Shown here: piece by piece, positions 185 to 47,474 of the stretch
How the letters are laid out: every line of letters begins with the position of its first letter
Numbering within the stretch: position 1 is the first letter of the stretch
NCBI GenBank assembly: GCA_951406725.2
Contig: OX597840.1
Coordinates: 24,118,001-24,182,000, forward strand
DNA from: Octopus vulgaris
Lineage: Eukaryota
Direction: 5' to 3'
Length of the DNA stretch: 64,000 bases
Notes under the pieces: model-generated
What the model was told of the DNA's origin: nothing
Seen by the model: only the letters and a program-made list of their open reading frames with translations
Database searches by the model: none
Made by a program: the position numbers and the translations under genes

Positions 185-290
185 TGTATTAAATTTTGTT
201 AGGGACCCTTCTTTTGGATCACCGGTGTTGTTAAGGCGAGGGAAATTTTTCAACGTCACCGCCGCCTTAGCATCTTTGTAATTAATTAGT
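185..290 (+). promoter_or_regulatory. Conserved subfamily-A upstream element, orphan copy (E0)
   Basis: TGTATTAAATTTTGTTAGGGAC..TCACCGG (CACCG at 220)..AGGGAAAT..TCACCGCC (CACCG at 257)..TGTAATTA. Confidence 0.75.
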
Positions 291-643
291 CCAACGAAAT
301 TAATTACATCATTTAATCAAACTAATTCCTACGATAACTTAGCGGTTCGGCAAAAGAGACTGATAGAATAAGTACTAGGCTTACAAAGAATAAGTCCCGG
401 GGTCGATTTGCTCGACTAAAGGCGGTGCTCCAGCATGGCCACAGTCAAATGACTGAAACAACAAAAAAATATTAATATTAACCCTTTAGCATTTAAACTG
501 GCCTTATCTGGTTCAAATATCCTGTTTTATGTTGAGGCTAGACAGATCTCGCTTCTCACATCTACCATACAATGACAGTCAAAAGATAAAACAATCGCAT
601 AATTGAAATCTTGAAGCTATGAGATAATGCACCCTAAAAGGGT

Positions 644-1639
644 TACTCTTTACTCTTTTACTTGTTTCAGTCATTTGACTGCGGCCATGCTGGAGCACTG
701 CCTTTTAATCGAGCAACTCGACCCCGGGACTAGTTCTTTGTAAGCCCAGTACTTATTCTATCGGTCTCTTTTGCCGAACCACTAAGTGATGGCGACGTAA
801 ACACACCAGCATCGGTTGTCAAGCAATGCTAGGGGGACAAACCCACACATATATATATATACATATATACAACGGGCTTCTTTCAGTTTCTATCTACCAA
901 ATCCACTCACAAGGCTTTGGTCGGCCCGAGGCTATCTATCTGCGGCTTTATATAGCTATGGTAAGACCTCACCTGGAATTTGCATCACCGGTCTGGAACC
1001 CCTATCTTGCCCAGGATATCAATCATCTGGAAGCTGTTCAGCAACGTGCAACCAAAAGAATATCCTCCATCAGGCATTTGCCATATCCTGAACGCCTTAC
1101 TTCCCCAGGCATGGACACATTGAAACTCCGACGTCTGGCAGCTGACTTGGCAGACACCCATAAAATTATCAACCATCGTACAAACAATAACTCTGAGCAC
1201 CTTTTCAAACTCCACCCATCTAACACCCGTGGACATATTTACAAAGTCAGAAAACAGCACAGCTCCCATGACTTCAGGAAACATTTTTTCACGCTGAGAG
1301 TTGCTGAGGCATGGAACAAACTGCCGGCATCAGTTGTTAGTTGTCGGAGCACTGCATCCTTCAAAACTTCCATGCTTTCTGAGATTACCAACACTACACT
1401 TGATTTTCTCCCCTCCATACACACACAAGCATGTATCTGACTCATACATTGTTCGCTTTCCAGACATTTTTACATTACTGCATGTACTTTATATGCACTT
1501 TCTGACAAGTTGTGGTGCACCTGAGCACTGTATACAATAATTTCATTATTATTAAGACACTTGCCCAAGGTGCCATGCAGTGGGACTGAACCCAGAACTA
1601 TGTCGTTGGTAAACAAGCTACTTAGCACACAGCCACTCA
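644..1639 (-). mobile_element. tRNA-derived SINE family A, split by a CR1 insertion
   Basis: tRNA-like head, central (TA/CA)n, 3' end TGACTGAAACAAGTAAAAGAG. Confidence 0.85.
935..1552 (+). mobile_element. CR1-clade LINE 3' fragment inserted in a SINE
   Basis: LYIAMVRPHLEFASPVWNPY..LEAVQQRATK..TRGH..FFTLRVAEAWNKLP is the CR1 ORF2 C-terminus; (ATT)n tail. Confidence 0.9.
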
Positions 1640-1979
1640 TAAATATATTTTACTTTCGAAGTAGGAATATATATTGATAAACATGTCACACATATTAATT
1701 ATATTTCTTCCACAAAATATCCCTGTAAAACATGCATCATATGGGGGGGTTTGCTAAAAAGTTCTTGGGTTTGGGTAAACGAAAATACAGGAGATTCAGT
1801 TAATTATGATTTTATTCACCATATTCCCCTCTCAGATTTACACACATATTAAAGGTTCTTCAGTTTTTTCATGCCCTGTAAAAGAACTTCGAAGATTTGC
1901 CCTCCAGCCAGGTCTTTTGCTATATTCTTAAAACCAGGAACTTTTCAGCACCTCATATATATATATATATTCTTTTTTT

Positions 1980-2378
1980 TTTTTACTTGTTTCAGTCATT
2001 TGACTGCGGCCATGCTGGAGCACCGCCTTTAGTCGAGCAACTCAACCCTGGGACTTATTCTTTTGTAAGCCCAGTACTTATTCTATCAGTCTTTTTTGCC
2101 GAACCGCTAAGTGACGGGGACCTAAACACACCAGCATCGGTTGTCAAGCAATGCTAGGGGGACAAACACACACACACACATATATATATATATACATATC
2201 TACGACAGGCTTCTTTCAGTTTCTATCTACCAAATCCACTCACAAGGCTTTGGTCAGCCCGAGGCTATATCCCTGTATAGTAGAAGACACTTGCCCAAGA
2301 TCCCACGCAGTGGGACTGAACCCGGAACCATGTGGTTGGTAAACAAGCTTCTTACCACACAGCCACTCCTGCGCCTAT
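1980..2378 (-). mobile_element. SINE family A
   Basis: Full-length copy. Confidence 0.88.
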
Positions 2379-2922: not shown

Positions 2923-3039
2923 ACATGTATTAGAATTTTCTCAGATTTTTCAGATTTTTGTATGCTAGGCTACTGGTTTTAAATTGATATTAATTAAATT
3001 AACATTCAATTTATCTCCCTCATTATTTAAATTATATAT

Positions 3040-4069: not shown

Positions 4070-4805
4070 ATTGCTAAATTACTTCTGGATACAAAAGATT
4101 TTTCCACAAATATCACAATGACAGGGCTTCCCTCCAGTGCGACTACATATGTACATAAGCATTATTACATAATAAATGTTTGACCCTTTTTTTTATCATC
4201 TTTCTCTTGAAATACAGTCTTAGATCCTTCTTCAGTGTATATTCATTTAGCAACCACGTGCAGGTAGCACGTAAAAAGCACCCACTACACTCTCGGAGTG
4301 GTTGGCATTAGGAAGGGCATCCAGCTGTAGAAACTCTGCCAGATCAAGACTGGAACCTGGTGCAGCCATCTGATTCGCCAGACCTCAGTCAAACCATCCA
4401 ACTCATGCCAGCATGGAAAACGGACGTTAAACGACGATGATGATGATGATGATGAATTCAGGGTTTCCCAGAGTTTAGTGAAATATTTTGTTCTCAAAAT
4501 AGTACACTATGTGATGAGAATGATTTCCCACAGAATTCACCACAAAAATGTCTAGCATCTAGTGGTTGGCGGACGATAAATTTAGATTTGCAAGACAAGG
4601 ATCTCTGATTTTTTTTCTTTCGAAATGCTTTCCTTTGCTGTGCATTTCTTTGGGTCTTTTTAAGTGACCAGTAGCAATAAATGATTTCTCATATTTTACA
4701 ATGGAATGGTTTTTTTTTCTCCAGAGTATTTTTTTGCATATTGCCAAATTTGTTTTAGATTGAAAGATTTCCAACATATTTCACACTGAATGGATTTTTC
4801 TCTTG
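4070..4805 (-). pseudogene. Decayed zinc-finger remnants downstream of ZNF1
   Basis: Minus strand reads ..SRTGGKPCHCDICGKIF (about 4080-4150) and EKSIQCEICWKSF (about 4760-4800), split by SINEs. Confidence 0.65.
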
Positions 4806-5239
4806 GGTGCAAGTGCCACATTTCAAAGCACTGGTGCTTGTGCCACATTTCAAAGCACTGGTGCTTGTGCCACATTAAAAGGACTGGTGCTGGTGCCATG
4901 TCAAAGGCACCAGTGTTGATGCCATGTAAAGGCACTGGTGTTAATTCCACATTAGAAGCATTGGTGCCATGTAAAACCGCAGAGCTGGTGTGACATAAAA
5001 AGTACTGGTGATGGTACCTGCATAAAAAGCACCCAGTTCACTCTGTAAAGTGATTGGCATCATGAAGGGCATCCAACGGTAGAAGCCAACCAAAAAAACA
5101 GACAATGGAATCTGGTGTGGCCCCTGACCTTACCAGATCCTGTCGGGCCATCCAACCCATGCCAGGATGGAAAACAGACATTAAATGATGATGCAGATGA
5201 TGTACACATGTGTCAGTTATGTTTCTTTTTTGGGTGAGG

Positions 5240-5753: not shown

Positions 5754-6809
5754 TCAAACTTTTTCCCCCGTGTGTATTCGTTTGTGAACAACAAGACTAG
5801 AATTCTGTCTGAAAGATTTGCCACATATTTCACAATGGAAAGGTTTCTCTCCCGTATGAATCCGTTTATGAGTTGTTAAATCACTGTTGGACACAAAAGA
5901 TTTCCCACAGGTCTCACAACGAAAAGGCTTTTCTCCCGTGTGCATTCTTCTGTGAACCGCCAGGTGGGAATTTTGGGTGAAAGATTTCCCACAGATTTCA
6001 CAGTGAAAAGGTTTCTCCCCGGTGTGAGTTCGTTTATGAGTTGTTAAGTTACTACTGTCAAGAAACGATTCCCCGCAAATGTCACACTGAAAGGGGTTTT
6101 CCCCCGTATGCGTCCGGTTGTGTTTCGTTAATTCGCCGTTAGTGACGAACGATTTACCGCAAATTTCACAGTGAAACAGTTTCTCGCCAGAATGCCGTCG
6201 CTTGTGAATCGCCAAATTACTCCTGGAAACGAAGGATTTTTCACAAATATCACAATGATAGGGTTTCTCTCCCGTATGACTCCGTATGTGGATCAGAAGA
6301 TTCGGATTTCGAACGAAGGACTCCCCACATATTTCGCACCGAAACGGTTTGATTCCCGAATGGATCTTCATGTGTCTTCTCAACACAAGACCGCTGACGA
6401 AGGTCTTGTCACAGGTTTGACAATGGAACGGTTTCTCTCCGGTATGACTACGCACATGGATGACAAGCTCCGCATTCTGAAAGAAAGATTTCTCGCAGAT
6501 CTGACACTGGAACGGTTTATCGCAGACGTGGATTTTCTTGTGCCTCGTTAACTTAATCTTGGAGACGAACGATTTCTTACACATTTCACACTCGAGCAGG
6601 TTCCCCTTCTTGTGGTGCGTGTCTCTGTGCGCCAATAACTTCTGCTCCGAAGAGAATGGTTTCTTACATATTCCACAACTATATTCAGCAATATTCTTAC
6701 GTGTAGATCTTTGTTTAGTAAATCTTTCTTTACATAAAGGTTCCTTACCATTCTTCTGTGACTCTTTTACAGAACCAGCATCGTTCTTCAGGGGATTAAC
6801 GCGATCCAT
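5754..6809 (-). CDS. C2H2 zinc-finger protein (ZNF1, subfamily A), 11 fingers
   Basis: Tandem C-x2-C-x12-H-x3-H units with TGEKP linkers. The ORF track starts at TTG 6851; the first ATG (MDRVNPL) is at 6809 and matches the paralog starts. Confidence 0.93.
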   Translation of the reverse strand: MDRVNPLKNDAGSVKESQKNGKEPLCKERFTKQRSTRKNIAEYSCGICKKPFSSEQKLLAHRDTHHKKGNLLECEMCKKSFVSKIKLTRHKKIHVCDKPFQCQICEKSFFQNAELVIHVRSHTGEKPFHCQTCDKTFVSGLVLRRHMKIHSGIKPFRCEICGESFVRNPNLLIHIRSHTGEKPYHCDICEKSFVSRSNLAIHKRRHSGEKLFHCEICGKSFVTNGELTKHNRTHTGENPFQCDICGESFLDSSNLTTHKRTHTGEKPFHCEICGKSFTQNSHLAVHRRMHTGEKPFRCETCGKSFVSNSDLTTHKRIHTGEKPFHCEICGKSFRQNSSLVVHKRIHTGEKV

Positions 6810-6917: not shown

Positions 6918-7022
6918 AATTACATTAATTAAGGTTCCAAGTCAACGGTGTTGTTCCAAATATTTTCCTTTTGTCAGCGACACCGGTGTCATAAATAAAA
7001 GTTCCCTAACATAATTTAACAC
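6918..7022 (-). promoter_or_regulatory. Conserved upstream element of ZNF1 (E1)
   Basis: Minus strand AAATTATGTTAGGGAAC..GACACCGGTGTC..AGGAAAAT..AACACCG; boxes at 6984-6988 and 6946-6950. Confidence 0.78.
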
Positions 7023-7769: not shown

Positions 7770-7786
7770 CACACACACACACATAG

Positions 7787-9635: not shown

Positions 9636-10050
9636 GGATCTTTTCGGTTTGAACGGCAGTTTTTTTAAATAATTTCTAGGTAACTAAAAAACTTTAAACT
9701 TCGTATACTGGTAGAATGTGTTTATAAAACATCTTTTTTCTTTTCGCTTTATTGAGAAAATTCTATAGTTTGTAAGATATTTGTTGTTCTTTTTTTCTTC
9801 AATTTCTGCAATTTCAACCAATCAATGGCATCTATTGAGGTGAAAACATTCTGTGCTGTATGAATATGTCCCTCGTTTAAGAAACAGATTGGGTTTATTT
9901 ATATTTGTGAAGAAAAAAAAGATACTCTTCCCCCACCATTAACCCTAAAACAGATTGAAATGCAATAGATCGATACTAGGGTCATAATTATGGGTGACAA
10001 TTTCATATGACGCCGCTAGAAAAAAACTGCCGTTCAAACTGAAAAGATCC
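9636..10050. mobile_element. Merlin-like MITE (GGATC family)
   Basis: TIR GGATCTTTTCGGTTTGAACGGCAG; 8-bp TSD tgattttt/cgattttt. Confidence 0.8.
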
Positions 10051-10094: not shown

Positions 10095-11189
10095 TCACGG
10101 TGAATATGTTCCACTCAAGTGTGTATTTTTATGCGCCAGCAATTCTTTCCTAGACACAAAAGACTTCATACAAACAACACAGTTTTCCCCCGTGTGAGTC
10201 CTTTTATGAGATGTCAGTTCACTGCTGGAGACAAAACATTTCCCACAGATCTCACAGCGATGCTGTTTGTCCCCAGTATGTCTCCGTTTGTGCATCGTTA
10301 AGTCACTGTTAGAAACGAAAGACAGACCACAAATTTCACAACGAAAGGGCTTTTCTCCAGTATGCCTTCGTATGTGAAATATAAGATGAGAATTCTGCCT
10401 GAAAGATTTCCCGCATATTTCACAGTGGAAAGGTCTCTCTCCCGTGTGGGTCCGTTTATGAGTTATCAAGTTACTACTATCAAGGAACGAATCCCCGCAA
10501 ATATCACAGCGAAAAGGGGTTTCCCCCGTATGCGTCCGGTTGTGTTTAGTTAATTCGTCATTAGCCACGAAACATTTACCGCAGATTTCACAACGAAACG
10601 GTTTCTCGCCAGAATGTATTTTCTTGTGATGTACCAAATTACTACTAGACACGAAAGATTTCCCACATAGATCACAACGATAGGGTTTCTCTCCCGTATG
10701 ACAACGCGTGTGGATAACAAAACTCTTTTTCCAGAAGAAGGATTTCCCACAGATCTTGCAGCAAAACGGTTTTTCTCCAGTGTGTAGGTTCCTATGTTCC
10801 TTCAGGTTGCTTACACTCACGAACGACTTATCACATATCTCACAATGGAACGGTTTCTCTCCCGTATGGCTACTCATATGAGCAACAAGCTTGCATTTGT
10901 GAACAAAATATTTCCCACAGATTTCACAACGAAACAGTCTTTCTCCAGAATGGAACCTCTTGTGACTTGTCAAATTACTTTTGGACACATAGGATTTCTC
11001 ACATATTTCACAGCGGAATGGTTTCTGGTGAATTTTCTTGTGCTTTAATAAATCATCTTCTGAAGTGAATGGTTTCTTGCAAATACCACAGCTATATTCT
11101 GTAATATTCCTGCGTAAAGATCTTCGTTTAGTAAATGGTTCTTTGCATAAAGATTCCTTACCATTGTCCAAATTATCAACATTTTCCAT
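10095..11189 (-). CDS. C2H2 zinc-finger protein (ZNF2, subfamily A), 12 fingers
   Basis: 364-aa ORF of C2H2 repeats with HTGEKP linkers; N-terminus homologous to ZNF1. Confidence 0.93.
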   Translation of the reverse strand: MENVDNLDNGKESLCKEPFTKRRSLRRNITEYSCGICKKPFTSEDDLLKHKKIHQKPFRCEICEKSYVSKSNLTSHKRFHSGERLFRCEICGKYFVHKCKLVAHMSSHTGEKPFHCEICDKSFVSVSNLKEHRNLHTGEKPFCCKICGKSFFWKKSFVIHTRCHTGEKPYRCDLCGKSFVSSSNLVHHKKIHSGEKPFRCEICGKCFVANDELTKHNRTHTGETPFRCDICGDSFLDSSNLITHKRTHTGERPFHCEICGKSFRQNSHLIFHIRRHTGEKPFRCEICGLSFVSNSDLTMHKRRHTGDKQHRCEICGKCFVSSSELTSHKRTHTGENCVVCMKSFVSRKELLAHKNTHLSGTYSP

Positions 11190-11319: not shown

Positions 11320-11430
11320 AACTAATTATAAAAATGCTGAGGGTATGTGGCCGGTGTCGATGAAAAACTGTTCTCTACTGAATAACATCGGTGACAGATG
11401 ACAAAAGGTTCCTTAACATAATTTAACACA
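11320..11430 (-). promoter_or_regulatory. Conserved upstream element of ZNF2 (E2)
   Basis: AAATTATGTTAAGGAAC..GTCACCG..CGACACCGG; boxes at 11389-11393 and 11352-11356. Confidence 0.78.
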
Positions 11431-13866: not shown

Positions 13867-14285
13867 GGATCTTTTCGGTTTGAACGGCAGTTTTTTCTAG
13901 CGGTGTCATATGAAATTGTCACCCATAATTATGACCCTAGTATCGATCTATTGCATTTCAATGTTTTAGGGTTAGTGTTAGGGGTGGGTGGAAGGGTATC
14001 TTTTTTCTTCACAAATGTAAATAAACCCAATCTGTTTCTTAAACGAGGGACATATTCATACGGCACAGAACGTTTTCTTTTTACCTCAATAGACGTCAGT
14101 GATTGGTTGAAATTGCAGAAATTGAAAAAAAAAAACAACAAATATCTTACAAACTATAGAATTTTCGCAATAAAGCCAAGAGAAAAAGATGTTTTATAAA
14201 CACATTCTACCAGTATACGAAGTTTAAAAGTGTTTAGTTACATGGAAATTATTTTAAAAAACTGCCGGTCAAACCGAAAAGATCC
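13867..14285. mobile_element. Merlin-like MITE (GGATC family)
   Basis: Same TIRs; perfect 8-bp TSD CAAATTTA. Confidence 0.85.
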
Positions 14286-15915: not shown

Positions 15916-16192
15916 GGATCTTTTCGGTTCGAACGGCAGTTTTTTTCTAGCGGTGTCATATGAAATTGTCACCCATAACTGTGACCCTAGTATCGATCTA
16001 TTGCATTTCAATCTGTTTTAGGGTTAGTTAGGAGTGGTGGGAAGGGTATCTTTTTTTCTTCAGAAATGTAAATAAACCCAATCTGTTTCTTAAACAAGGG
16101 ACATATTCATACGGCACAGAATGTTTTTGTTTTACCTCAATAGACGTCATTGATTGGTTGAAATTGCAGAAATTGAAGAAGAAAAAAAACAA
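15916..16192. mobile_element. Truncated GGATC-family MITE abutting the ZNF3 stop codon
   Basis: One TIR plus internal sequence, ending 2 bp from the TAG at 16195. Confidence 0.8.
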
Positions 16193-16194
16193 TG

Positions 16195-17358
16195 CTATGA
16201 AACAGTTTTGTCTCTTGCGTGTATTTTTTTATGCAAACCAAGGGCTGAGCTGTGGGAGAAAGATTTCCCACACAGCCCACAATGATAAGGTCTTTCTCCA
16301 GTGTGGACTCTTTTGTGAGAGACAAGATGGGCATTTTGAGTGAAAGATTTACCACAAGTATCACAGTGGAACCGTTTTTCCCCAGTGTGTGTTCGTTTAT
16401 GGGTCCTTAAATTACTGTTGTCGAGAAAACTTTTTCCACAAATCTCACAATGAGAAGGTCTTTCTCCTGTATGGACTCTGATATGTTTCACCAAATCGTT
16501 TTTAGACAGGAAAGACTTCTCGCATACTTGACAGTGGAACGGTTTCTCTCCTGTGTGAATTCGTTTGTGTCTGGCTAAATTACTTCTAGAGACGGAAGGA
16601 ATTCCACATAGGTCACAGTGGAATGGTTTCTCCCCGGTGTGACTCCGTATATGGATGACAAGACTGGATTTCCAACAGAAAGATTTCCCGCATATTTCAC
16701 ACTGAAACGAACTTTCTTTAGTGGGCGTTTCCAAATCGTATTTCTCTAAATCAACACTTCCGACGAATTCTTCCCCATCTGTTTGACTTGGGGAGGTCTT
16801 CTCTCCGGCATGGTTTCGCATATGGAGAATAAAACTCGGTTTATGAACGAAATTATTACCGCATATTTCGCACCGAAACAGAATCGTCCTCGCGTGGATC
16901 TTTGAATGTGTTTTCAAGACAGAAAAATACGCGAAAGTTTTCCCGCATGTTTCACAATGGAACGGTTTCTCTCCAGTATGACTACGTACGTGGATAATCA
17001 GACCTGAATTATGGAAGAAAGACTTCCCGCATATTTCACAAGGAAACAACCTTTCCCTACTGTGTCGTCTCTTGTGCCATGTTAATTTCTTCCTCGACAC
17101 AAAACACTTCTGGCATATTTCACACTCATGGGACTTTTCGCTCTTGTGTGTCCGTGTGTGCTTGGATAATTCCTGTTCCGAAGAGAATATTTTCTTACAT
17201 ATCTCACAGCTATACTCACTAACATCTCCATCGGACGATTCCTGTTTAGTAAATGTCTCATCACACAAGGTCTTCTCTCCGTGGTCTGTTTGTGGAATTG
17301 AATCTGCATCGCTAAAAACAGTCGCGTTTGAAGAATCGGCGTCGTGAACGTCTTCCAT
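16195..17358 (-). CDS. C2H2 zinc-finger protein (ZNF3, subfamily A), 11 fingers in two blocks
   Basis: 387-aa ORF; 5+6 fingers separated by a degenerate finger-length spacer (SPSQTDGEEFVGSVDLEKY). Confidence 0.93.
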   Translation of the reverse strand: MEDVHDADSSNATVFSDADSIPQTDHGEKTLCDETFTKQESSDGDVSEYSCEICKKIFSSEQELSKHTRTHKSEKSHECEICQKCFVSRKKLTWHKRRHSRERLFPCEICGKSFFHNSGLIIHVRSHTGEKPFHCETCGKTFAYFSVLKTHSKIHARTILFRCEICGNNFVHKPSFILHMRNHAGEKTSPSQTDGEEFVGSVDLEKYDLETPTKESSFQCEICGKSFCWKSSLVIHIRSHTGEKPFHCDLCGIPSVSRSNLARHKRIHTGEKPFHCQVCEKSFLSKNDLVKHIRVHTGERPSHCEICGKSFLDNSNLRTHKRTHTGEKRFHCDTCGKSFTQNAHLVSHKRVHTGERPYHCGLCGKSFSHSSALGLHKKIHARDKTVS

Positions 17359-17477: not shown

Positions 17478-17570
17478 TCGAAGATGGCGGTGTCGATGAG
17501 AAATATTCCTGCTTCTCAGTGTTACCGGTGACAGACGCTTTAGTTCCCCGGATATAATTCAATACAATCA
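17478..17570 (-). promoter_or_regulatory. Conserved upstream element of ZNF3 (E3)
   Basis: GAATTATATCCGGGGAAC..GTCACCGG..AGGAATAT..CGACACCGCC; boxes at 17526-17530 and 17488-17492. Confidence 0.75.
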
Positions 17571-30544: not shown

Positions 30545-30628
30545 TTCGCGACGTTGGAAAACTTTCCCGAACCGCAAATAAACCGGTGACGAAAGAAAGC
30601 TGTCCCTGATACAATTTATTACATCCAG
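30545..30628 (-). promoter_or_regulatory. Conserved upstream element of ZNF5 (E5)
   Basis: AAATTGTATCAGGGAC..GTCACCGG (30584-30588)..CGGGAAAG..ACGTCGCG (degenerate proximal box). Confidence 0.68.
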
Positions 30629-32130: not shown

Positions 32131-32200
<70 letters not shown>

Positions 32201-32280
32201 TTAAGGGTAGAAATCAATATTTATCAATTAAAACCAGTGGTCTAACATATTAAAAAAATCCGAAGATTAAATATATATAT

Positions 32281-32470
32281 ATACCAATTAAGGATTGAAC
32301 ACGAAAAATGTGGACGTCAACATGCTCAACAAAAGATTATGAGACGTCAAATGGCCATTCTCCACAAAAGATTATGAGAACATAATCTTTTGTGGAGAGA
32401 ATGGCGATTTGACGTCTATATCTAGCATGTTGACTGTCCACTTTTTCGTGTTCAGTCCTTAATTGGTATA
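32281..32470. repeat. ~190-bp fold-back inverted repeat between (TA)n tracts
   Basis: ATACCAATTAAGGA..CACAAAAGATTATG-agaa-CATAATCTTTTGTG..TCCTTAATTGGTAT. Confidence 0.85.
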
Positions 32471-32552
32471 TATATATATATATTATTAATCGGGCATAGT
32501 CAGTTGCCAACACAAAATACAGAACAATGCGAAGAAATTTTCTAGCATTTCA

Positions 32553-32660
32553 GAATGTTTTAAATTATGTTAGACATCTTTCGATTTTGTCACCGGAATT
32601 ATTGAGGTAAGGGGAAAATATATGAACGACACCGCCGTCATCAGTAGCTTTGTAATTACC
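32553..32660 (+). promoter_or_regulatory. Conserved upstream element of ZNF6 (E6)
   Basis: AAATTATGTTAGAC..GTCACCGG (CACCG at 32591)..AGGGGAAAAT..CGACACCGCC (CACCG at 32630)..TGTAATTA. Confidence 0.78.
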
Positions 32661-32772
32661 TCAGGTGAGTTAATTGGATCATGTAAACATTGTCTGATTA
32701 CATCTAAGCCGAGGAACTGGACCGTTATAGATTATAATCGCAGAGCTTTTACGAATTCCTGGTTGATTAATT

Positions 32773-34581
32773 ATGGAAGACGTTAAAGTCTTGGACACTT
32801 CCAACGTAATTGTCTTCGAGGAGCAGAATTTACAGAGTGGAACCTTTGCTGACCAAAAATCCTTTCATGGCAATATTCCTGGACAAAGCTGTGAGATTTG
32901 TAGTAAAATATTCCCGTCGGAACCTGAATTATTATCCCACAAAGAAATCCACAAGACAGAAAAACCATTCCACTGCGAAATATGCGGGAAATCTTTCCCA
33001 TCGAACGTTTTTCTGACAACCCACAGAAGGACACATTCGGGAGAGAAACCGTTTCCTTGTGGAATGTGCGGCAAATCATTCGTAAATAATTCTCATCTTG
33101 CAATTCACAAGCGAATACACACGGGAGAAAAACCATTCCAGTGTGAAATATGCGGCAAATCTTTCACCCAGAATGCCAGCCTTGTTATCCACGTACGGAG
33201 CCATACAGGAGAAAAACCCTTCAAGTGTGATGTCTGCGGGAAGTATTTCGTTTCTAATATTATCTTGTCACGGCATAGAACGATTCATACAGGTGAGAGA
33301 CCATTTCAGTGTGAAATATGCGGGAAATCTTTTATTAATAATTCGAAACTTGTTGTCCATATACGTAGTCATACGGGAGAGAAACCTTGCAGTTGTGATG
33401 TTTGCGGGAAGTGTTTCGTGTCCAATAGTAGTTTGGCGATTCACAAAAGGCTTCACACGGGAGAGAAATTGTTACGCTGTGAAATCTGCGGGAAAACTTT
33501 TATAAATAACTTGAAACTTGTCATTCATGAACGTCGACACACGGGAGAGAAACCGTTTCGCTGTGAAATCTGCGGGAAGGATTTTATCGAGAATTCTAAG
33601 CTTACGATCCATCAACGTAGGCACTCCGGAGAAAAACCGTACGTGTGCGAAGTATGTGGAAAATCTTATGTAAATAACAGTGATTTAAAAACTCATGAGC
33701 GAATTCATAGTGGTGAAAAACCGTTCAGTTGTGAAATTTGCGGCAAGTCCTTTCTCTATAGCAGTAATTTAAAAAGACACGGTAGGATCCATACGGGAGA
33801 AAACCCCTTTCACTGTGACATATGTGGAAAATCGTTCTCTGATAATTCTAATCTCGTAGTTCACAAACGTAGACACACCGGGGAATTACCACATCATTGT
33901 GAAATCTGTGGCAAGTCGTTTGTAAGTAACAGTGATTTAAAGACCCATGAACGAATCCACTCTGGAGAGAAACCCTTCCATTGTGATATCTGTGGGAAAT
34001 CGTTCTATGTGAATTCACAGCTTGTAGTTCATAAAATGATGCATGCTGGGGAAAATCCTTATTCTTGTGATATTTGTGGGAAATCTTTTCTGACTAATAG
34101 CTTGTTAAAAGCCCACAAAAAAATTCACAGTGGGGAGAAACCATATCATTGTGAGATCTGTGGGAAAGCTTTTCTTAAAAACCACGATTTAAAACGCCAC
34201 AATCAAATCCACACAGGGGAGAAACCTTACCATTGTGATATTTGTGACAAGTCGTTCTGTAAAAATTCTTCCCTTGTTGTGCACAAGCAGATACACACGG
34301 GGGAAAAATCGTATCTTTGTGATATGTGTGGGAAATCCTTCTCCCGGAATTTCGATCTTATGAGCCACAAGCGTAGACACACTGGGGAAAAACCTTGCGC
34401 CTGTGGGGTCTGTGGGAAATCTTTTGTTAATAACAGTGACTTAAACATTCACAAACGGAAACACACGGGAGAAAAACTGTTTCACTGTGAAATCTGTGGC
34501 AAATCTTTTATTACCAGCAGTCTTTTAAAGAGACATGGACGCATACACTCTGGTGGGAAGGCTTTAAAATGTGAAACCTGA
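32773..34581 (+). CDS. C2H2 zinc-finger protein (ZNF6, subfamily A), 20 fingers
   Basis: 602-aa ORF of C2H2 repeats. Confidence 0.95.
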   Translation: MEDVKVLDTSNVIVFEEQNLQSGTFADQKSFHGNIPGQSCEICSKIFPSEPELLSHKEIHKTEKPFHCEICGKSFPSNVFLTTHRRTHSGEKPFPCGMCGKSFVNNSHLAIHKRIHTGEKPFQCEICGKSFTQNASLVIHVRSHTGEKPFKCDVCGKYFVSNIILSRHRTIHTGERPFQCEICGKSFINNSKLVVHIRSHTGEKPCSCDVCGKCFVSNSSLAIHKRLHTGEKLLRCEICGKTFINNLKLVIHERRHTGEKPFRCEICGKDFIENSKLTIHQRRHSGEKPYVCEVCGKSYVNNSDLKTHERIHSGEKPFSCEICGKSFLYSSNLKRHGRIHTGENPFHCDICGKSFSDNSNLVVHKRRHTGELPHHCEICGKSFVSNSDLKTHERIHSGEKPFHCDICGKSFYVNSQLVVHKMMHAGENPYSCDICGKSFLTNSLLKAHKKIHSGEKPYHCEICGKAFLKNHDLKRHNQIHTGEKPYHCDICDKSFCKNSSLVVHKQIHTGEKSYLCDMCGKSFSRNFDLMSHKRRHTGEKPCACGVCGKSFVNNSDLNIHKRKHTGEKLFHCEICGKSFITSSLLKRHGRIHSGGKALKCET

Positions 34582-35810
34582 GAGGTTTTTTTCCTTGTAA
34601 GTCTAAATTTATTGTCCAGTACCAAGTAAACATTGGAGACCATTTATTCCTTTAGCATTTGAACCGGCCAAAATAATATTTCTGTTTTGTGTTCAAACTG
34701 GCTAGATCTAGCCTTTCACACCTACCCTACAATGTCATTCTAAAAATAAATAATCCCATCATCAAAATGTGAAAGCTATGAGATAATCCATGATTAATTC
34801 AAAGCAATGTGAATAAACAAGCTTTACATTTTGACAGGGTAATCTGAATTTGAAAGAGTTAATCTTTGTGTAATATTTTGGAAATCACTCTCATTGTATT
34901 CTCATCTTTTAATATAGAAATGTAGTCTCATTTCAGAGAAATCTTAACTCTTTTACTTGTTTCAGTCGTTTGACTGTGGCCATGCTGGAGCACCACCTTC
35001 AGTCGAGCAAATCGACCCCAGGACTTATTCTTTGTAAGCCTAGTACTTATTCTATTGGTTTCTTTTACCGAACTGCTAAGTGACGGAGGCGTAAACACAC
35101 CAGCATTGGTTGTCAAGCGATGTTGGGGGGACAAACACAGACACAAATACACACACCTGGGATGAGGTGATGAAGCACAAACTTTGGACATTGGGCCTCA
35201 TGAAGGTGATGACGAGCAACCAAGACCTTTGGATATGCTGTGCTTGAGAAGACAAGCGAGACCGTAACCGGGGCCTATGCCAGTGCAGCATAACCAGCCC
35301 ATGCCAGTGGCACGTAAAAAGCACAATTCAAGCGTGGGTCATTAGCAGTGTCACCTGACTGGCTCCCATGCTTGTGCAAATAAAAAGCACCCACTACACT
35401 CTCGGAGTGGTTGGCGTTAGGAACGGCATTCAGCTGTAGAAACCTTGCCAGATCAAGATTGGAGCCTAGTACAGCCTTCTGGCTTGCCAGCCCTCCATCA
35501 AACCATCCAACCCATGCCAGCATGGAAAGCAGATGTTCAACAACAACGATGATGATCATGTGATATATATATATATATATGTGACCTCGTGTGTACCGTT
35601 GGCGATTTTTTTTCCCTCTGTCTTTCCTTCTCCTATGTTTCCGACGAAGAGCTCCGCTCGAAACGTTTAACCCTCCTTCTTTCTTTCCTTTCCTAAGCGT
35701 CCAATAATACTATATTTGTTCCATGTCCTCGCGTTGTTGTGATTTCTCTTTGTGTTTTCATGTTTGGATTAACTTTATATATATATATATGTATATATGT
35801 ATATATATAT

Positions 35811-38099: not shown

Positions 38100-38243
38100 G
38101 GCGATCCTTCGGTATAGGTACACACGTGACTTTTTTTACATTTCTGAAGATAAGAGAAACCATTTTCTCCCACCCCTAACCCCCCATATATTAAAAAAAA
38201 CACTTTCTTGAAATGTATCCGGTACTTATACCGAAGTTACGCC
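38100..38243. mobile_element. Merlin-like MITE (GGCGA family)
   Basis: Ends GGCGATCCTTCGGTATA / TATACCGAAGTTACGCC; perfect 8-bp TSD CAGAGTTC; relatives at 1-106, 12092-12284, 40836-40933, 47363-47402 and 51546-51710. Confidence 0.85.
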
Positions 38244-38311
38244 CAGAGTTCTTCTCATCACTCATCAGAACTAATAGCAGACTGGCTAAAACCGAAGAAT
38301 CAAACAGATCG

Positions 38312-38403
38312 AATTATGTCAGGAACTTTTAACTTATAACACCGGAATAATTATAGCGAGGGGAAAATATTAGCGACACCGCCAACCTGCTATTGTAATT
38401 AGT
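38312..38403 (+). promoter_or_regulatory. Conserved upstream element of ZNF7 (E7)
   Basis: AATTATGTCAGGAAC..ACACCGG (CACCG at 38340)..AGGGGAAAAT..CGACACCGCC (CACCG at 38377). Confidence 0.78.
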
Positions 38404-38511
38404 TGAGCAAATTTCCTAAATTGATGTAAAAACAGTCCCAGGAAACCGAATCTTTTCAGATTAATATTAACAAAGATTTCTGCAGCTTTTAAGAATTCCT
38501 GATCTTTAAAT

Positions 38512-40503
38512 ATGGACGATGTTAATCCCTTGGGATCTTCAAACGATGTAAATTCCGTTTCACGGACAGTCAAAGGCAGGAAAGTTTTATTCAATGAAGA
38601 GTCCACTGATCAGAGATCGATACAGAGAAATATTACTGAATATATCTGTGGCATTCGTAAGGAAAAATATATTTCAGAGCATGAATTAATCATACACAAG
38701 GACATCCATAAAAAGGAGAAACCATTCCAATGTGAAATATGCGGGAAATATTACACACAGAATGCCAGCCTTGTTGTCCACGTACGGGGTCACACGGGAG
38801 AAAGACCCTTCAAGTGTGATATCTGCGGGCAATATTTCGTTTCTAATACTATTTTGTCAAGGCATAGAACGATTCATACAGGCGAGAGGCGGTTTCGGTG
38901 TGAAATATGCGGCAAATCTTATATTAGTAATTCGAAACTTGTTGTCCACGAACGGGGTCACACGGGAGAAAGACCCTTCAAGTGTGATATCTGCGGGAAA
39001 TATTTCGTTTCTAATACTATTTTGTCAAGGCATAGAACGATTCATACAGGCGAGAGGCGGTTTCGGTGTGAAATATGCGGCAAATCTTATATTAGTAATT
39101 CGAAACTTGTTGTCCACGAACGGGGTCACACGGGAGAAAAACCCTTCAAGTGTGATATATGCGGGAAATATTTTGTGTCTAATACTGCTTTGTCAAAGCA
39201 TAAAGCGATTCATACAGGTGAGAAACCATTTCAGTGTGAAATCTGCGGGAAATCTTTTCTTTATAATTCGAAACTTGTTGTCCATATTCGTAGTCATACG
39301 GGAGAGAAACCGTGGAGTTGTGATGTTTGCGGGAAGTGTTTCGTGTCCAGTAGTAGTTTGGCGATTCACAAAAGGCTTCACACAGGAGAGAAATTGTTAC
39401 GCTGTGAAATCTGCGGGAAAACTTTTCTAAATAATTCTAAACTTGTCATTCATGGACGTAGGCACACGGGAGAGAAACCGTTTCGTTGTGAAATCTGCGG
39501 GAAGGATTTTGTTGAGAATTCTAAGCTTAAGAGCCATCAACGTAGGCACTCTGGAGAAAAACCGTACGTGTGCGAAGTATGTGGAAAATCTTATGTAAAT
39601 TACAGTGATTTAAAAACTCATGAAGGAATTCATAGTGGTGAAAAACCGTTCAGTTGTGAAATTTGCGGCAAGACTTTTCTCTGTAGCAGTAAATTGAAAG
39701 CACACGGTAGGATCCATACGGGAGAAAAACCGTTTCACTGTGACATATGTGGAAAATCTTTCTCTGATAATTCTAATCTCGGAGTTCACAAACTTAGACA
39801 CACCGGGGAATTACCACATCATTGTGAAATCTGTGGCAAGTCGTTTGTAAGTAACAGTGATTTAAAGGCCCATGAACGAATCCATACTGGAGAGAAACCG
39901 TTCCATTGTGATATCTGTGGGAGATCTTTCTCCCGGAATTTCTATCTTATGAGCCACAAGCGTAGACACAGTGGGGCAAAACCTTGCACCTGTGATATCT
40001 GTGGGAAATCATTCTATGTGAATTCAGAGCTTGTCGTTCATAAAATGATGCACGTTGGGGAAAATCCTTATTCTTGTGATATTTGTGGGAACTCTTTTCT
40101 GACTAATAGCTTGTTAAAAGACCACAAAAAAATTCACAGTGGGGAGAAACCTTATCACTGTGAGATCTGTGGGAATGCTTTTCCTCAAAAACACGATTTA
40201 AAACGTCACAATCGAACTCATACGGGGGAGAATCCTTACCATTGTGATATCTGTGGGAAATCTTTCTCCCGGAATTTCAGTCTTATGAGCCACAAGCGTA
40301 GACACAGTGGGGAGAAACCTTGCGCCTGTGGGGTCTGTGGGAAATCTTTTGTTAATAACAGTGACTTAAACATGCACAAAAAGAAACACACGGGAGTAAA
40401 ACTGTTTCAATGTGAAGTCTGTGGGTATTCTTTTATTTCTAGCCTTTTAAAGAGACATGGATGCATACAGTCTGGTGGGAAGGCTTTAAAATGTGAAACG
40501 TGA
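38512..40503 (+). CDS. C2H2 zinc-finger protein (ZNF7, subfamily A), about 20 canonical plus 2 degenerate fingers
   Basis: 663-aa ORF; 5' part nearly identical to ZNF8, 3' part resembles ZNF6. Confidence 0.95.
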   Translation: MDDVNPLGSSNDVNSVSRTVKGRKVLFNEESTDQRSIQRNITEYICGIRKEKYISEHELIIHKDIHKKEKPFQCEICGKYYTQNASLVVHVRGHTGERPFKCDICGQYFVSNTILSRHRTIHTGERRFRCEICGKSYISNSKLVVHERGHTGERPFKCDICGKYFVSNTILSRHRTIHTGERRFRCEICGKSYISNSKLVVHERGHTGEKPFKCDICGKYFVSNTALSKHKAIHTGEKPFQCEICGKSFLYNSKLVVHIRSHTGEKPWSCDVCGKCFVSSSSLAIHKRLHTGEKLLRCEICGKTFLNNSKLVIHGRRHTGEKPFRCEICGKDFVENSKLKSHQRRHSGEKPYVCEVCGKSYVNYSDLKTHEGIHSGEKPFSCEICGKTFLCSSKLKAHGRIHTGEKPFHCDICGKSFSDNSNLGVHKLRHTGELPHHCEICGKSFVSNSDLKAHERIHTGEKPFHCDICGRSFSRNFYLMSHKRRHSGAKPCTCDICGKSFYVNSELVVHKMMHVGENPYSCDICGNSFLTNSLLKDHKKIHSGEKPYHCEICGNAFPQKHDLKRHNRTHTGENPYHCDICGKSFSRNFSLMSHKRRHSGEKPCACGVCGKSFVNNSDLNMHKKKHTGVKLFQCEVCGYSFISSLLKRHGCIQSGGKALKCET

Positions 40504-41026
40504 GAGGTTTTTCCTTGTAAGTCTAAATTTATATCAGATATATAAAATTTCTAAATATCTCATAGACATATGTACGGTGGTTGAGCGATAGAGTGATTGT
40601 ATACTGTCAACTTAACGTGAGAGAGTTATTGTTTGCGGAGACATATCCGGGTGTGGGTGGTTTGTCCTGGACTGTTTGAAGGAATTTGTCCAAAGACTTC
40701 TTGAATTTTGTGTGGTCAGTTTCTTTTTTGCCAGGCGAAGTTTTTTTGTTTTCGAATATCAAAAACATCTTTCTCGTTGCTTTCAAGATGTAACACCGAT
40801 ATTCATCAAGTTTTTGTTTTTTTAAATCAGAGTTCGGCGTGACTTTTTTTACATTTCTCCCACCCCTAACCACCCATATATTAAAAAATACACTTTCTTG
40901 AAATATATCCGGTACTTATACCGAAGTTACGCCCAGAGTCCTTCTCATCACTCATCAGAACTAATAGCAGACTGGCTAAAACCGAAGAATCAATCAGATC
41001 GAAATGGAACTGTATATGAATCGATG

Positions 41027-41119
41027 AAATTATGTCAGGGACTTTTAGCTTATAACACCGGAATAATCATAGCGAGGTGAAAATATTAGCGACACCGCCA
41101 ACCTGCTATTGTAATTAGT
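41027..41119 (+). promoter_or_regulatory. Conserved upstream element of ZNF8 (E8)
   Basis: AAATTATGTCAGGGAC..ACACCGG (CACCG at 41056)..CGACACCGCC (CACCG at 41093). Confidence 0.78.
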
Positions 41120-41227
41120 TGAGCAAATTTCCTAAATTGATGTAAAAACAGTCCCAGGAAACCGAATCTTTTCAGATTAATATTAACAAAGATTTCTGCA
41201 GCTTTTAAGAATTCCTGATCTTTAAAT

Positions 41228-42886
41228 ATGGACGATGTTAATCCCTTGGGATCTTCAAACGATGTAAATTCCGTTTCACGGACAGTCAAAGGTGAGAAAG
41301 TTTTATTCAATGAAGAGTCCACTGATCAGAGATCGATACAGAGAAATATTACTGAATATATCTGTGGCATTCGTAAGGAAAAATATATTTCAGAGCATGA
41401 ATTAATCATACACAAGGACATCCATAAAAAGGAGAAACCATTCCAATGTGAAATATGCGGGAAATATTACACACAGAATGCCAGCCTTGTTGTCCACGAA
41501 CGGGGTCACACGGGAGAAAGACCCTTCAAGTGTGATATCTGCGGGCAATATTTCGTTTCTAATACTATTTTGTCAAGGCATAGAACGATTCATACAGGTG
41601 AGAGGCGGTTTCGGTGTGAAAATTGCGGGAAATCTTTTATTAATAATTCGAAACTTGTTATTCATATACGTAGTCATACGGGAGAGAAACCGTGGAGTTG
41701 TGATGTTTGCGGGAAGTGTTTCGTGTCCAATAGTAGTTTGGCGATTCACAAAAGGCTTCACACGGGAGAGAAATTGTTACGCTGTGAAATCTGTGGGAAA
41801 ACTTTTATAAATAACTTGAAACTTGTCATTCATGAACGTCGACACACGGGAGAGAAACCGTTTCGTTGTGAAATCTGCGGGAAGGATTTTATCGAGAATT
41901 CTAAGCTTACGATCCACAAACGTACCCACACTGGGGAAAAACTATATTGTTGTGAGGTGTGTGGGAAATTTTTTGTTAATAGTAGTGTTTTAAAAAGCCA
42001 TGAACGAATCCATGGTGGGGAGAAGCCTTATCAGTGCGAAACTTGTGGCAAGTCTTTTCTCAGCAATAGTAATCTTCAAAGACACAAACGAATTCATACT
42101 GGGGAAAATCCATTCCACTGCGAAATCTGTGGCAAGTCATTCTCTGATAATTCAAATTTTTTGGTTCACAAACGGAGACACAGTGGGGAATTGTCTTATT
42201 GCTGTGAAATCTGTGGTAAATCGTTCGTAAATAACAGTGATTTAAAGACCCATGAACGAATCCACTCTGGAGAGAAACCCTTCCATTGTGATATCTGTGG
42301 GAAATCGTTCTATGTGAATTCACAGCTTGTAGTTCATAAAATGATGCATGCTGGAGAAAATCCCTTCTGCTGTGATATCTGTGGAAAGTCATTTCTTACG
42401 ATCAGTTTATTAAAAACGCACAGAAAAATCCACTCTGGAGAGAAACCATATCACTGTGAGATCTGTGGGAAAGCTTTTCTTAAGAACCACGATTTAAAAC
42501 GTCACAATCAAATCCACACAGGGGAGAAACCTTATCATTGTGATATTTGTGACAAGTCGTTTGGTAAAAATTCTTCCCTTGTTGTGCACAAGCAGATACA
42601 CACGGGGGAAAAGTCCTATCTTTGTGATATGTGTGGGAAATCCTTCTCCCGGAATTTCGATCTTATGAGCCACAAGCGTAGACACACTGGGGAAAAACCT
42701 TGTGCCTGTGGGGTCTGTGGGAAATCTTTTGTTAATAACAGTGACTTAAACATACACAAACGGAAACACACGGGTGAAAAACCCTATTGTTGTGAAGTAT
42801 GTGAGAAATCCTTCATTTCTAGCAGTCTTTTAAAGAGACACGAACGACTGCACTCCAGAGGGAAGCCTCTCAAATGTGAGACATAA
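41228..42886 (+). CDS. C2H2 zinc-finger protein (ZNF8, subfamily A), 17 canonical plus 1 degenerate finger
   Basis: 552-aa ORF of C2H2 repeats. Confidence 0.95.
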   Translation: MDDVNPLGSSNDVNSVSRTVKGEKVLFNEESTDQRSIQRNITEYICGIRKEKYISEHELIIHKDIHKKEKPFQCEICGKYYTQNASLVVHERGHTGERPFKCDICGQYFVSNTILSRHRTIHTGERRFRCENCGKSFINNSKLVIHIRSHTGEKPWSCDVCGKCFVSNSSLAIHKRLHTGEKLLRCEICGKTFINNLKLVIHERRHTGEKPFRCEICGKDFIENSKLTIHKRTHTGEKLYCCEVCGKFFVNSSVLKSHERIHGGEKPYQCETCGKSFLSNSNLQRHKRIHTGENPFHCEICGKSFSDNSNFLVHKRRHSGELSYCCEICGKSFVNNSDLKTHERIHSGEKPFHCDICGKSFYVNSQLVVHKMMHAGENPFCCDICGKSFLTISLLKTHRKIHSGEKPYHCEICGKAFLKNHDLKRHNQIHTGEKPYHCDICDKSFGKNSSLVVHKQIHTGEKSYLCDMCGKSFSRNFDLMSHKRRHTGEKPCACGVCGKSFVNNSDLNIHKRKHTGEKPYCCEVCEKSFISSSLLKRHERLHSRGKPLKCET

Positions 42887-44025: not shown

Positions 44026-47000
44026 TGTTAACCATTCTACAAAGTGTACTGGGTGTCTTTTACATCTTGAACTAGGAAATCATTTGTGAACTAATGGAGT
44101 TCTTTGACAAGTGAATATACCAAACATTGGAAATCTTTTTTGTGAAGCAGGCTGCACGAGATGCAACTCATTGTAAGGTGGGCCACACTACTAAAACAAA
44201 TTCAAGACCAGTTTTCATTAGGGGTGCCATTCAGAAAGTTTTGCAGGTTGCCCATGACTGGAATACACATTAGATAAAATCTATATCAAAGTGAAATATG
44301 TGGGATATAATTGGATTAATTAAATCTTCATTTGTAATTCATAGCTGAACACAGACAGAAGAACCCTTTCACTGTGGAATATGCTATCATCATTCTCTAA
44401 ATTCTAGTATTGTTATCCAAGAATATTCGTTGGAGAAAGATCATTCACTGTTTGTCTCAAAGACACAAAGTTAAAAAAATGGCTTTATAAATTTGAAACG
44501 AGGGGGAAATTAATTCTGTTGAAAATGTTTGAATTTAAGTAAAATATACACCGGTGAAAAACATTACTGAAATGATTTGTTAAAAAGATGGTTCATAAAC
44601 AGAAATATGAGAAATTTATGTAAAATATTACCTCTGAAATTTACAACAAAATGTTCAAATAATTTACATATAAATTGAAATATTTTTTTATAATAATTGT
44701 ATACATTTTAAATTAAAATGTTTAAGCTATGCTTGTTAATGTTATTTTCTGAACAATAAATATCTTTCTCAATATCTCGTTAGCATTCCGATTATTCTGT
44801 TAAATCTATTGCTTATTTATTCACATTGTTTTGAATTAATTATGCTTTACAGTTCTATATTTAAGAGATGAGGAATTATGTACATTATTTTTATGGGCAT
44901 ATGGTGTAGTGGTTAAGAGCGCAGGCTATTAAAACCAAGATTCCAAGTTCGATTCCAGGCAGGGACCTGAATAATGATGACAACTGGTACTTAATTTATC
45001 GACCCCGAAAGGATGAAAGACAAAGTTGACCTCGGTGGAATGTCTTATAATATTCTTTTTCTACTCTAGGCACAAGGCCCGAAATTTTGGGGAAGGGGGT
45101 CAGTCGATTAGATCAACCCCAAAAGGATGAAAGGCCTTGGTGGAATTTGAACTCAGAATGTAAAGACAGACGAAATACCTATTTCTTTACTACACACAGA
45201 GGGGACAAACAAGGATAGACAAACGGATTAAGTCGATTATATCAACCCCAGTGTGTAACTGGTACTTATTTAACCGACCCCGAAAGGATGAAACGCAAAG
45301 TCGACCTTGGCGGAATTTGAACTCAGAACGTAAAGACAGATGAAATACTGCTGAGCACTTCACCCGGTGTGCTAACGTTTCTGCCAGCTCGCCGCCTTTG
45401 AAATGCCATATGAAATGCTGCTAAGCATTTTGCCTGGCATGCTAATGATTCAGTTGGAAATGACCAATTGTTGTGTGCTCTGTGTATGTGCCAATGTTGC
45501 CGGAATGAATTATTGGTTAATTTTTATTGCAAACTGGTCATTTAGTGACTTATATAACAAGTAAATCAATCGAAAAAACTATTGATAAATTTCAAAACAC
45601 CACTAGAGTGAAGCTTTCCAAAATGCATCCACCTGAAAGAAAATGCATTATAATAGATATACCAAGATTTGAAACAGTAACAAAAATACGGTAAAACCGA
45701 GGTACACCTGGTAGAAGAGAGGGTGAGGTATGAAACCCTGCCCCTGGTGATGAACTAGGAGGATTTAGGTCCTTATTTTACAGACTAAATAAGATTTGTT
45801 TTGATAATGAACAGTAAAAACGCAATTGTTCGAGGGTGGGCTCAAGGAAGGACGTCCATCCTCGTTGTATATATATTCATTTTCATTCTATGACCGTTGC
45901 CTGACTGGCCCTCGTGCTGGTGGCACATAAAAGCACCCACTACACTCTCGGAGTGGTTGGCGTTAGGAAGAGCATCCAGCTGTAGAAACTCTGCCAAATC
46001 AAGATTGGAGCCTGGTGCAGCCATCTGGTTCGCCAGTCCTCAGTCAAATCGTCCAACCCATGCTAGCATGGAAAGTGGACGTTAAACGATGATGATGATG
46101 TCCCCACGTATACTGTCTTTGTCCTTGTACCATCCCATCTGTGTTTCAGGCCTCGTGCCAAATAAAGAATTCAATTATTGGTTAATTTGTGGAAAGCTGT
46201 GTATAATAATTTAATAACACCAAGGAAACATTTAAACAGGATTTATTATCACCTCACATCCAACCCATGCTAGCATGGAAAACGGACGTTAAACGATGAT
46301 GATGATGATGTGTCTTATGAAGTTGGTCCTGCGTGACAAATAAGCAGGTAGAGTCAACAAGATGAAAGAAGTATGATGCAACACGCAAAGAAGCTAGATA
46401 TCAAAATTTATCACTGGATTAAATAAAAGGAATATGTATGTGTGTGTATGTATGTATGAATATATGTATGTGTGTGTGTATGTATGTATGCATGCGTGCG
46501 TGTGTGTGTGTGTGTATGTATGCATGCATGTATGTGTGTGTATGGATGGATGTATGTATACACATGCGTCGCTTCATTTCTGACACCATAATTTGCATAT
46601 CGGTTGAAGCATGCAGTTGTTAAAACGATTTGGCGAGGGTGGAGCCAGTCATTACGGCGAGACGTCTGCAACAGTCTGCGAATTGGTGCCTAAAAAACCA
46701 ATTCCATAACCGTTGGCGGGAAAAGTTAAACGTTGTTGTTTCCTATTAGATTAGCAACGATCGCTCAGAGCTAAGATGAAAAGCATTTTCAACCGCATCA
46801 ATCTAATTTTTGTATACAAAGGACGACACTGTCGAACGTCTCTTTTCTAAGGCAAAAAGGGTCTGGTTTGAAGAGAATTGACTGTTATTTCATGCTGGTC
46901 GAGTGACCACACTGAGGCTCTTTCGTTGATACGTTATTGTCAGTTTGCTGGGTGATGGTCATTTTGCTTTACCATGAACTGGGATACACTTGAAAGACCA

Positions 47001-47271
47001 AATTCATATCATCGAAGGGCCTTTTATGAATGTCTGAAATTAAGTAAAGGGACCATTTATTTATATCACCGTTGTACATAAGGTACCGACATTCCCTTAT
47101 TGTGTTGAGTTTGGCTAATTTAATTATGAATTGCAGTAATTATATCATGCTATGATAAACGTAACATTGTGGATAACACAGGGATGACTTATATGTTAAA
47201 TTGTTGGTGTTCTTTCCCTGCCTAATTCTATATCTCCTTACATCACAAACTACGTTACATCCTAAATTTAA

Positions 47272-47320
47272 AGAAGGGACAATATTACAAGCAGCACCGC
47301 GAACTTGCTATTGTAATTAG
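47272..47320 (+). promoter_or_regulatory. Partial upstream element of ZNF9 (E9, proximal half only)
   Basis: AGGGACAATATT..GCACCGC (CACCG at 47295)..CTATTGTAATTAG; the distal half is degenerate. Confidence 0.6.
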
Positions 47321-47474
47321 TTTTAGCTAAATTAATTACGGCATGTAAACAGGGTCCCATGAGGCGATCCTTCGGTATAGGTACCGTAAGTGGCTTTGTT
47401 TAACAAAACTGAAACCATTGTAGATCATAGCAACTGACGTTTCTACAGCTTTTAAGAATTCCTGGGTAATTAAC

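Follow-up and report, generated by a model that had tools for sequence, protein, structure and literature searches.

The analysis concerns a 64,000-nt stretch of the Octopus vulgaris genome (contig OX597840.1, positions 24,118,001 to 24,182,000 of the forward strand; hereafter the window), which contains eleven long open reading frames (ORFs) encoding C2H2 zinc-finger (ZNF) arrays. Nine of them (Z1 to Z9, subfamily A) have a common short N-terminus, encode 9–20 fingers in one uninterrupted ORF each, and start at 6809−, 11189−, 17358−, 24627−, 30416−, 32773+, 38512+, 41228+, and 47475+ (position of the ATG and strand); the other two, at 54683+ and 63080−, differ from this subfamily. Upstream of each of the nine genes, and at one orphan site (E0), lies a copy of an element of about 72 bp, which consists of an AATTATG box followed by two head-to-tail units of the form G(G/A)A-N~13-RWCACCG. 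All counts of the element refer to the window, where ten copies were found, at the nine genes and the orphan site named in a preliminary description of the locus:

190 to 261, plus strand: orphan copy E0; C of CACCG at 220 and 257, spacing 37 bp
6946 to 7018, minus strand: element of Z1; C of CACCG at 6988 and 6950, spacing 38 bp; ORF 5754 to 6809, 11 fingers
11352 to 11423, minus strand: element of Z2; C of CACCG at 11393 and 11356, spacing 37 bp; ORF 10095 to 11189, 12 fingers
17488 to 17560, minus strand: element of Z3; C of CACCG at 17530 and 17492, spacing 38 bp; ORF 16195 to 17358, 11 fingers
24764 to 24836, minus strand: element of Z4; C of the core at 24806 and 24768, spacing 38 bp; ORF 23056 to 24627, 17 fingers
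30546 to 30618, minus strand: element of Z5; C of the core at 30588 and 30550, spacing 38 bp; ORF 29001 to 30416, 15 fingers
32561 to 32634, plus strand: element of Z6; AATTATG at 32563, CACCG at 32591 and 32630, spacing 39 bp; ORF 32773 to 34581, 20 fingers
38310 to 38381, plus strand: element of Z7; C of CACCG at 38340 and 38377, spacing 37 bp; ORF 38512 to 40503
41026 to 41097, plus strand: element of Z8; C of CACCG at 41056 and 41093, spacing 37 bp; ORF 41228 to 42886
47037 to 47071 (distal) and 47274 to 47299 (proximal), plus strand: split element of Z9; C of CACCG at 47067 and 47295; ORF 47475 to 48380, 9 fingers
47083 to 47273, plus strand: insertion of about 191 bp between the halves of the Z9 element; breakpoints inferred, with an uncertainty of a few bp

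The orientation of the element tracks that of its gene (five copies on the plus strand, five on the minus strand), and the two cores are 37–39 bp apart in nine of the ten copies. The spacings reported previously for E0 to Z8 (37, 38, 37, 38, 38, 38, 39, 37, and 37 bp) were reproduced exactly, but a fixed geometry in all nine genes is contradicted by Z9, which had been left out of that series and whose cores are separated by 228 bp (37 bp without the insertion, which has no second copy in the window). In seven of the nine genes, the ATG is 134–143 bp away from the C of the proximal CACCG; the earlier distances had been measured from the box end and agree once the origin is matched, as do the outliers Z2 (167 bp) and Z9 (180 bp). 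The distal half of Z2 is longer by 2 bp. By contrast, the literal consensus AGGGA-N13/14-CACCG proposed in the preliminary description is present in only 7 of 20 halves, and in both halves only in E0; the distal core of Z4 reads CGCCG, and the proximal core of Z5 has decayed to CGCGA. The looser motif G(G/A)A occurs at −19 to −14 in 16 of 18 halves versus 22 of the 87 CACCG sites across the window, a number that includes those of the element itself. The sequence TGTAATTA is exact in six of the ten copies, and the observed/expected ratio of CpG is 1.50 in the element versus 0.73 in the window.

Within the window, the element is restricted to the genes of subfamily A and the orphan site. A profile hidden Markov model (HMM) of the element yielded ten matches with E ≤ 5e-5, all of them at E0 and Z1 to Z9 (eight being training rows), and the next match had an E value of 0.68 (64 kb). 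In a leave-one-out analysis that omitted Z8 and Z9, the joint scores of the remaining eight copies were 25.0–59.1, whereas 100 simulated windows of 64 kb scored no higher than 17.3. A C(A/G)CCG motif was not found within 1.5 kb upstream of the ORF at 54683+ or 0.9 kb upstream of that at 63080−, whose apparent starts may be internal exons. Of all copies, the orphan E0 comes nearest to the consensus, and it obtained the highest leave-one-out score (59.1). Its homology to the leaders of the other copies fades near position 320, where a repeat resembling a short interspersed element cuts in; no finger ORF lies behind it on its strand, and no relic of a finger on the plus strand is found before 32845. 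It is possible that E0 still gives rise to a transcript, or that its gene was lost in the recent past.

There is support for the two halves being copies of one motif. When trained on the distal halves, a profile places each of the nine proximal halves tested among the top 210 of 127,952 positions; with training on the proximal halves, eight of nine distal halves are placed among the top 543, and only the distal half of Z6 fails (rank 11,951). Most of this signal stems from the RWCACCG core, and the identity between distal and proximal spacers is at background level (0.32 vs. 0.35). The element thus appears to comprise two sites for one putative factor and a separate AATTATG site, which is present only on the distal side.

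The element forms the upstream end of a homologous block of about 200 bp that reaches the ATG and the first codons, and a leader-only HMM recognizes all nine genes at E values of 5e-17 or better (eight of the nine being training rows); the homology of the leader had gone unmentioned in the preliminary description. Because the whole block is homologous, the shared layout is inherited. The spacing varies in length by 2 bp in 38, in proportion to the leader (9 bp in about 138, excluding Z2 and Z9), and the spacing is therefore not shown to be tighter than expected from ordinary descent.

The boxes, however, are constrained beyond the neutral sites of the same paralogs, in keeping with the selection suggested in the preliminary description. 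Among eight copies, the mean pairwise identity of the boxes ranges from 0.67 in the proximal GGAAA and 0.73 in AATTATG..GGA to 0.83 and 0.78 in the distal and proximal cores, as opposed to 0.43, 0.45, and 0.51 in spacers and linker, 0.42 in the upstream flank, and 0.43–0.48 at fourfold sites (0.48 in the N-terminus, based on 201 non-independent pairs, and 0.43 in the best-matched fingers). The intervening bases, which had been described as freely differing, indeed do so in the distal spacer and the linker (0.43–0.45) but less so in the proximal spacer (0.51–0.59). In an alignment of seven genes, 16 of the 79 columns of the element are invariant, whereas neutral simulations (0.46 identity, re-aligned in the same way) produced a mean of 2.8 and a maximum of 7 such columns in 60 runs, and uniform-rate simulations (0.58 identity) a mean of 8.1 and a maximum of 14, again in 60 runs. 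The tree of the paralogs is star-like with long branches, with Z7 and Z8 as the sole supported pair, so that the genes represent about eight independent lineages.

A possible 5′ end of a transcript is available for Z6. All or part of the Z6 stretch is contained in 20 of the 24 sequencing runs listed, none of which is recorded as RNA; 14 of these 20 were guessed to be RNA, and four were compared over positions 32200–35000. Run X1 (study P1) has a contig of 978 nt that extends from 32634 into the Z6 ORF without differences or gaps, and run X4 (study P2) has a contig of 706 nt that extends from 32643 into the ORF, ungapped and with one difference; both align from their first letter:

32634 to 32772, plus strand: leader of Z6, 139 nt, joined without gaps to the start of the ORF in X1 (from 32634) and X4 (from 32643)

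X1 and X4 are among the runs guessed to be RNA, and their size of about 100 million letters, compared to 1,500–2,200 million for X19 and X20, would fit this guess. If so, an unspliced leader of 130–139 nt joins the ORF of Z6. The first letter of the X1 contig, at 32634, coincides with the G of the proximal CACCG; counted from there as +1, the positions are −71 for AATTATG, −43 for the distal core, and −23 for the proximal GGGGAAAA. In the DNA-sized run X19, the depth of the bin is 6.02 versus about 2.4 from its contig starting at 32634, which indicates further cover upstream. X1 and X4 lack cover at 32482–32575 and X20 at 32576–32763, which was not counted as evidence. The contigs of Z6 weakly hint at an unspliced message with the element at its 5′ end.

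Taken together, the conservation of the boxes, the one-motif nature of the halves, the restriction to the subfamily, and the weak hint from Z6 make a family-specific promoter the best explanation. To judge from the sequence, the element is probably a TATA-less promoter of this gene family that was inherited by tandem duplication and maintained by selection, with a doubled site for one factor. Each gene duplication would copy the element along with the gene. A single sequence-specific factor would bind twice, via the strong RWCACCG and a weaker G(G/A)A whose position may shift by 1 bp, and AATTATG upstream of the distal unit would be a separate site; transcription would start at or shortly before the proximal CACCG (as judged from Z6 only). 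A new gene copy would then be born with a complete and compact promoter, which may have aided the expansion of a family of single-ORF genes. The dedicated promoter class proposed in the preliminary description is thereby retained as a family-specific promoter, but not the notion that its fixed spacing represents a selected geometry: indels of 1–2 bp do occur, and Z9 has an intact ORF with nine fingers although its element is split by about 191 bp. On this reading, the exact phase of 37–39 bp would be mostly inherited and only loosely required.

Several observations weigh against such a promoter. Constraint is not confined to the element, because the leader is also mildly constrained (10 of 130 columns are invariant, compared to a mean of 4.3 and a maximum of 8 in 30 runs of the neutral simulation). 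Z7 and Z8 differ at four positions of the element, two of which lie in the GGA boxes, but at none of the 131 nt of their leaders, and both Z5, with its decayed proximal core, and Z9, with its split element, have intact ORFs. The boxes were defined from the same alignment in which their conservation was assessed, and the simulations employ a star tree and our own rate model. The GGA part alone cross-predicts poorly between the halves, whose column conservation correlates only weakly (Spearman 0.22, p 0.20). In the case of Z6, position 32634 may be explained by an assembly break, given that a contig of the DNA-sized run X19 begins there as well; the starts of X1 and X4 are 9 nt apart, contigs cannot show a start, and the comparison concerns one of nine genes. 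Alternatively, the element might be a neutral relic of tandem duplication, whose boxes would be columns that chanced to survive. Such a relic would agree with the homology of the entire 5′ region, the proportionate variation of spacing and leader length, and the location of the Z7/Z8 differences in the element; nevertheless, it is highly improbable, because no run among the 60 neutral and the 60 uniform-rate simulations produced as many invariant columns, and the same CpG-bearing core is present in both halves, whereas the spacers between the halves are unrelated.

Other explanations assign the element to known classes of sites. Ten short motifs were matched against the element, nine of them common consensus sequences (CTCF, TATA, human proximal sequence element [PSE], ZNF143, Grainyhead, YY1, kB, DRE, and M1BP) and the tenth the fly PSEA of PMC1761439. 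CTCF, TATA, the human and fly PSEs, ZNF143, and DRE fit the copies at background level. The fit of kB, M1BP, YY1, and Grainyhead is nominally slightly better than that of random sequences (YY1: 2.3 vs. 3.1 mismatches, exact only in Z3; Grainyhead: 2.3 vs. 2.8). It is unlikely that the unit is an octopus version of the PSE of small nuclear RNA (snRNA) promoters, read by SNAPc, and that a doubled snRNA promoter was recruited for the mRNA genes of the ZNF subfamily. Both kinds of element are TATA-less with a unit of about 21–25 bp, and if Z6 starts near 32634, its distal unit would span about −60 to −39, with the center near −50; according to the available portion of PMC1761439, PSEs are centered 50–55 bp upstream, the fly PSEA measures about 21 bp, and PSE sequences vary between taxa. 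For the latter reason, a mismatch to the human or fly motif is weak evidence. Yet the fly ATTC-CAA (PMC1761439, available portion) and the human PSE fit the element no better than random 92-mers (1.8 vs. 1.8 and 5.4 vs. 5.4 mismatches, respectively); the comparison with the human PSE leaves the earlier argument from the vertebrate TCACC unsupported. Moreover, the available portion of PMC1761439 describes one PSE per promoter and no tandem pair, the genes downstream of the element are long protein-coding ORFs, and the window offers no snRNA gene for comparison (zero matches to Rfam). The doubtful corollary of this scenario is a doubled, SNAPc-read promoter whose second unit would fix the start (SNAPc is described to set the start at a fixed distance; PMC9758055, available portion), and which would serve as a compact, portable cassette that allowed the single-ORF genes to multiply and to be regulated together, separately from ordinary mRNA genes.

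Quite unlikely is also a cluster-wide choice or insulator site resembling the conserved sequence element (CSE) of the clustered protocadherins, or an autoregulatory site for the fingers encoded in the cluster itself. The analogy to the CTCF-bound CSE drawn in the preliminary description is valid for position, because the distance to the start codon is alike in most members (134–143 bp in seven of nine genes), as in the CSE and its CTCF-binding site (PMC7811963, available portion). It fails for sequence: the CTCF core has a mean of 4.9 mismatches versus 4.8 in random 92-mers, and no CGCT box is apparent by eye at a shared position. Unlike the protocadherin element, that of the octopus comprises two direct-repeat units in 72 bp, and its orientation follows each gene in a cluster whose members face both ways. 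As for autoregulation, arrays of 9–20 fingers would be long enough for a unit of 23 bp, but among 132 fingers Arg is present at position −1 in 7, at +6 in 21, and at both in none; under the general recognition code, such Arg-poor base-contact positions fit the GCGGTG strand poorly, which is a weak argument against autoregulation. A similarly slim chance is given to a DNA transposon as donor of the unit, i.e., to the subterminal sequence or transposase-binding site of a miniature inverted-repeat transposable element (MITE) that seeded the ancestral promoter. The best matches of the half-site profile outside the ten loci (10011+, 13905−, 15955−, and 53033+; scores 16.1–18.7) are indeed four copies of one MITE family, and Z1 and the MITE have AATTATG...TATGACACCG in common in an alignment of 33 bp with one 3-bp gap; a score of 18.7 is attained in 11 of 300 simulated windows. 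However, because all four belong to the same family, they represent a single observation. The local alignments are not significant (the best, that of Z1, was reached in 29 of 300 shuffles, those of the other eight in 56–272 of 300), the MITE has one unit instead of two, and it is not listed by the element HMM.

A shared promoter class in a lineage-specific ZNF expansion is already known from zebrafish. The promoter classes of the znf genes on chromosome 4 are characterized by CAGE (cap analysis of gene expression) shape and a TATA box (bioRxiv 10.1101/2021.08.09.455629; PMC10547256; PMC5690287; available portions), and the octopus cluster resembles them in being a lineage-specific C2H2 expansion with a shared promoter architecture. 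By contrast, the available portions of these sources describe no bipartite repeat, the octopus element shows no enrichment of TATA (TATAWAWR: mean of 1.4 mismatches vs. 1.5 in random sequences, exact in one of ten copies), and the FiNZ genes of zebrafish have two exons, whereas the Z genes are single ORFs. A description of the motif was not found in the literature searched, which mostly excludes subscription papers. Expanded C2H2 genes are a hallmark of coleoid genomes, and a neural bias in their expression has been reported for cuttlefish (PMC13218726, available portion); the literature searched yielded no account of their activation. The 72-bp element with its natural variants (decayed in Z5, split in Z9) and the orphan copy would lend itself to pull-down probes and reporter constructs, and could mark the subfamily for genome-wide counting and dating. 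A SNAPc site, if true, would be a surprising reuse of the snRNA machinery; recognition by an ordinary factor would be a useful yet expected outcome of tandem duplication.

The leaders have further features. That of Z6 contains a perfect splice-donor consensus (CAG/GTGAGT; 32662–32670, plus strand), which is unused in the contigs listed; the other leaders contain no match. Several leaders have an acceptor-like TTTCTACAG or TAAG 18–30 nt before the ATG, and spliced upstream exons are therefore possible for those genes. Minimal upstream ORFs consisting of AUG and stop are present in six of the nine leaders (Z1, Z3, Z6, Z7, Z8, and Z9) and account for 6 of the 14 upstream ATGs. Homology seems to connect those of Z6, Z7/Z8, and Z9, whereas the corresponding place in Z2 is occupied by ACG. 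These upstream ORFs could be start-stop translational brakes or chance occurrences in AT-rich DNA.

The proteins encoded by subfamily A lack a Pfam domain before the fingers in the three of nine genes tested, a protein search with the N-terminal 70 amino acids of Z9 had no match, and none of four exact protein look-ups was successful. The best 120 of 552 matches to Z4 are generic ZNFs with 32–54% identity, none of them from an octopus. Z7 and Z8 arose by recent duplication and have the same leader of 131 nt (38200–42886), and their finger arrays overlap in sequence with that of Z6, which suggests gene conversion or unequal crossover. Past the stop codons of Z5 and B2, as well as downstream of Z1, there are decayed finger repeats; the arrays thus seem to become shorter from their 3′ ends:

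28433 to 29000, 60277 to 61382, 4094 to 4162, and 4714 to 4812, minus strand: decayed finger repeats

The MITE family with an element-like unit near one end has GGATCTTTTCGG terminal inverted repeats and is represented at 13867–14285, 9636–10050, 15916–16195, and up to 53071; we take it to be Merlin-like. The copy at 13867 is flanked by an 8-bp target duplication (CAAATTTA), and the ORFs of Z2 and Z3 are each followed directly by a copy. A second MITE-like family with CGATCCTTCGG ends and a similar inner CCCTAACC stretch is present at 95, 12272, 38102, 47365, and 51698. Remnants of this family precede E0 and Z7 and are also found in the leader of Z9, where the preliminary description had already noted one. 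The only two-box match in a scan of metagenomes, on a phage-like contig with an ORF that we read as terminase-like, was judged to be due to chance. An ORF of 204 amino acids at 826–1440 (plus strand) has no match in Pfam and resembles the C-terminal tail of a reverse transcriptase of a long interspersed element.

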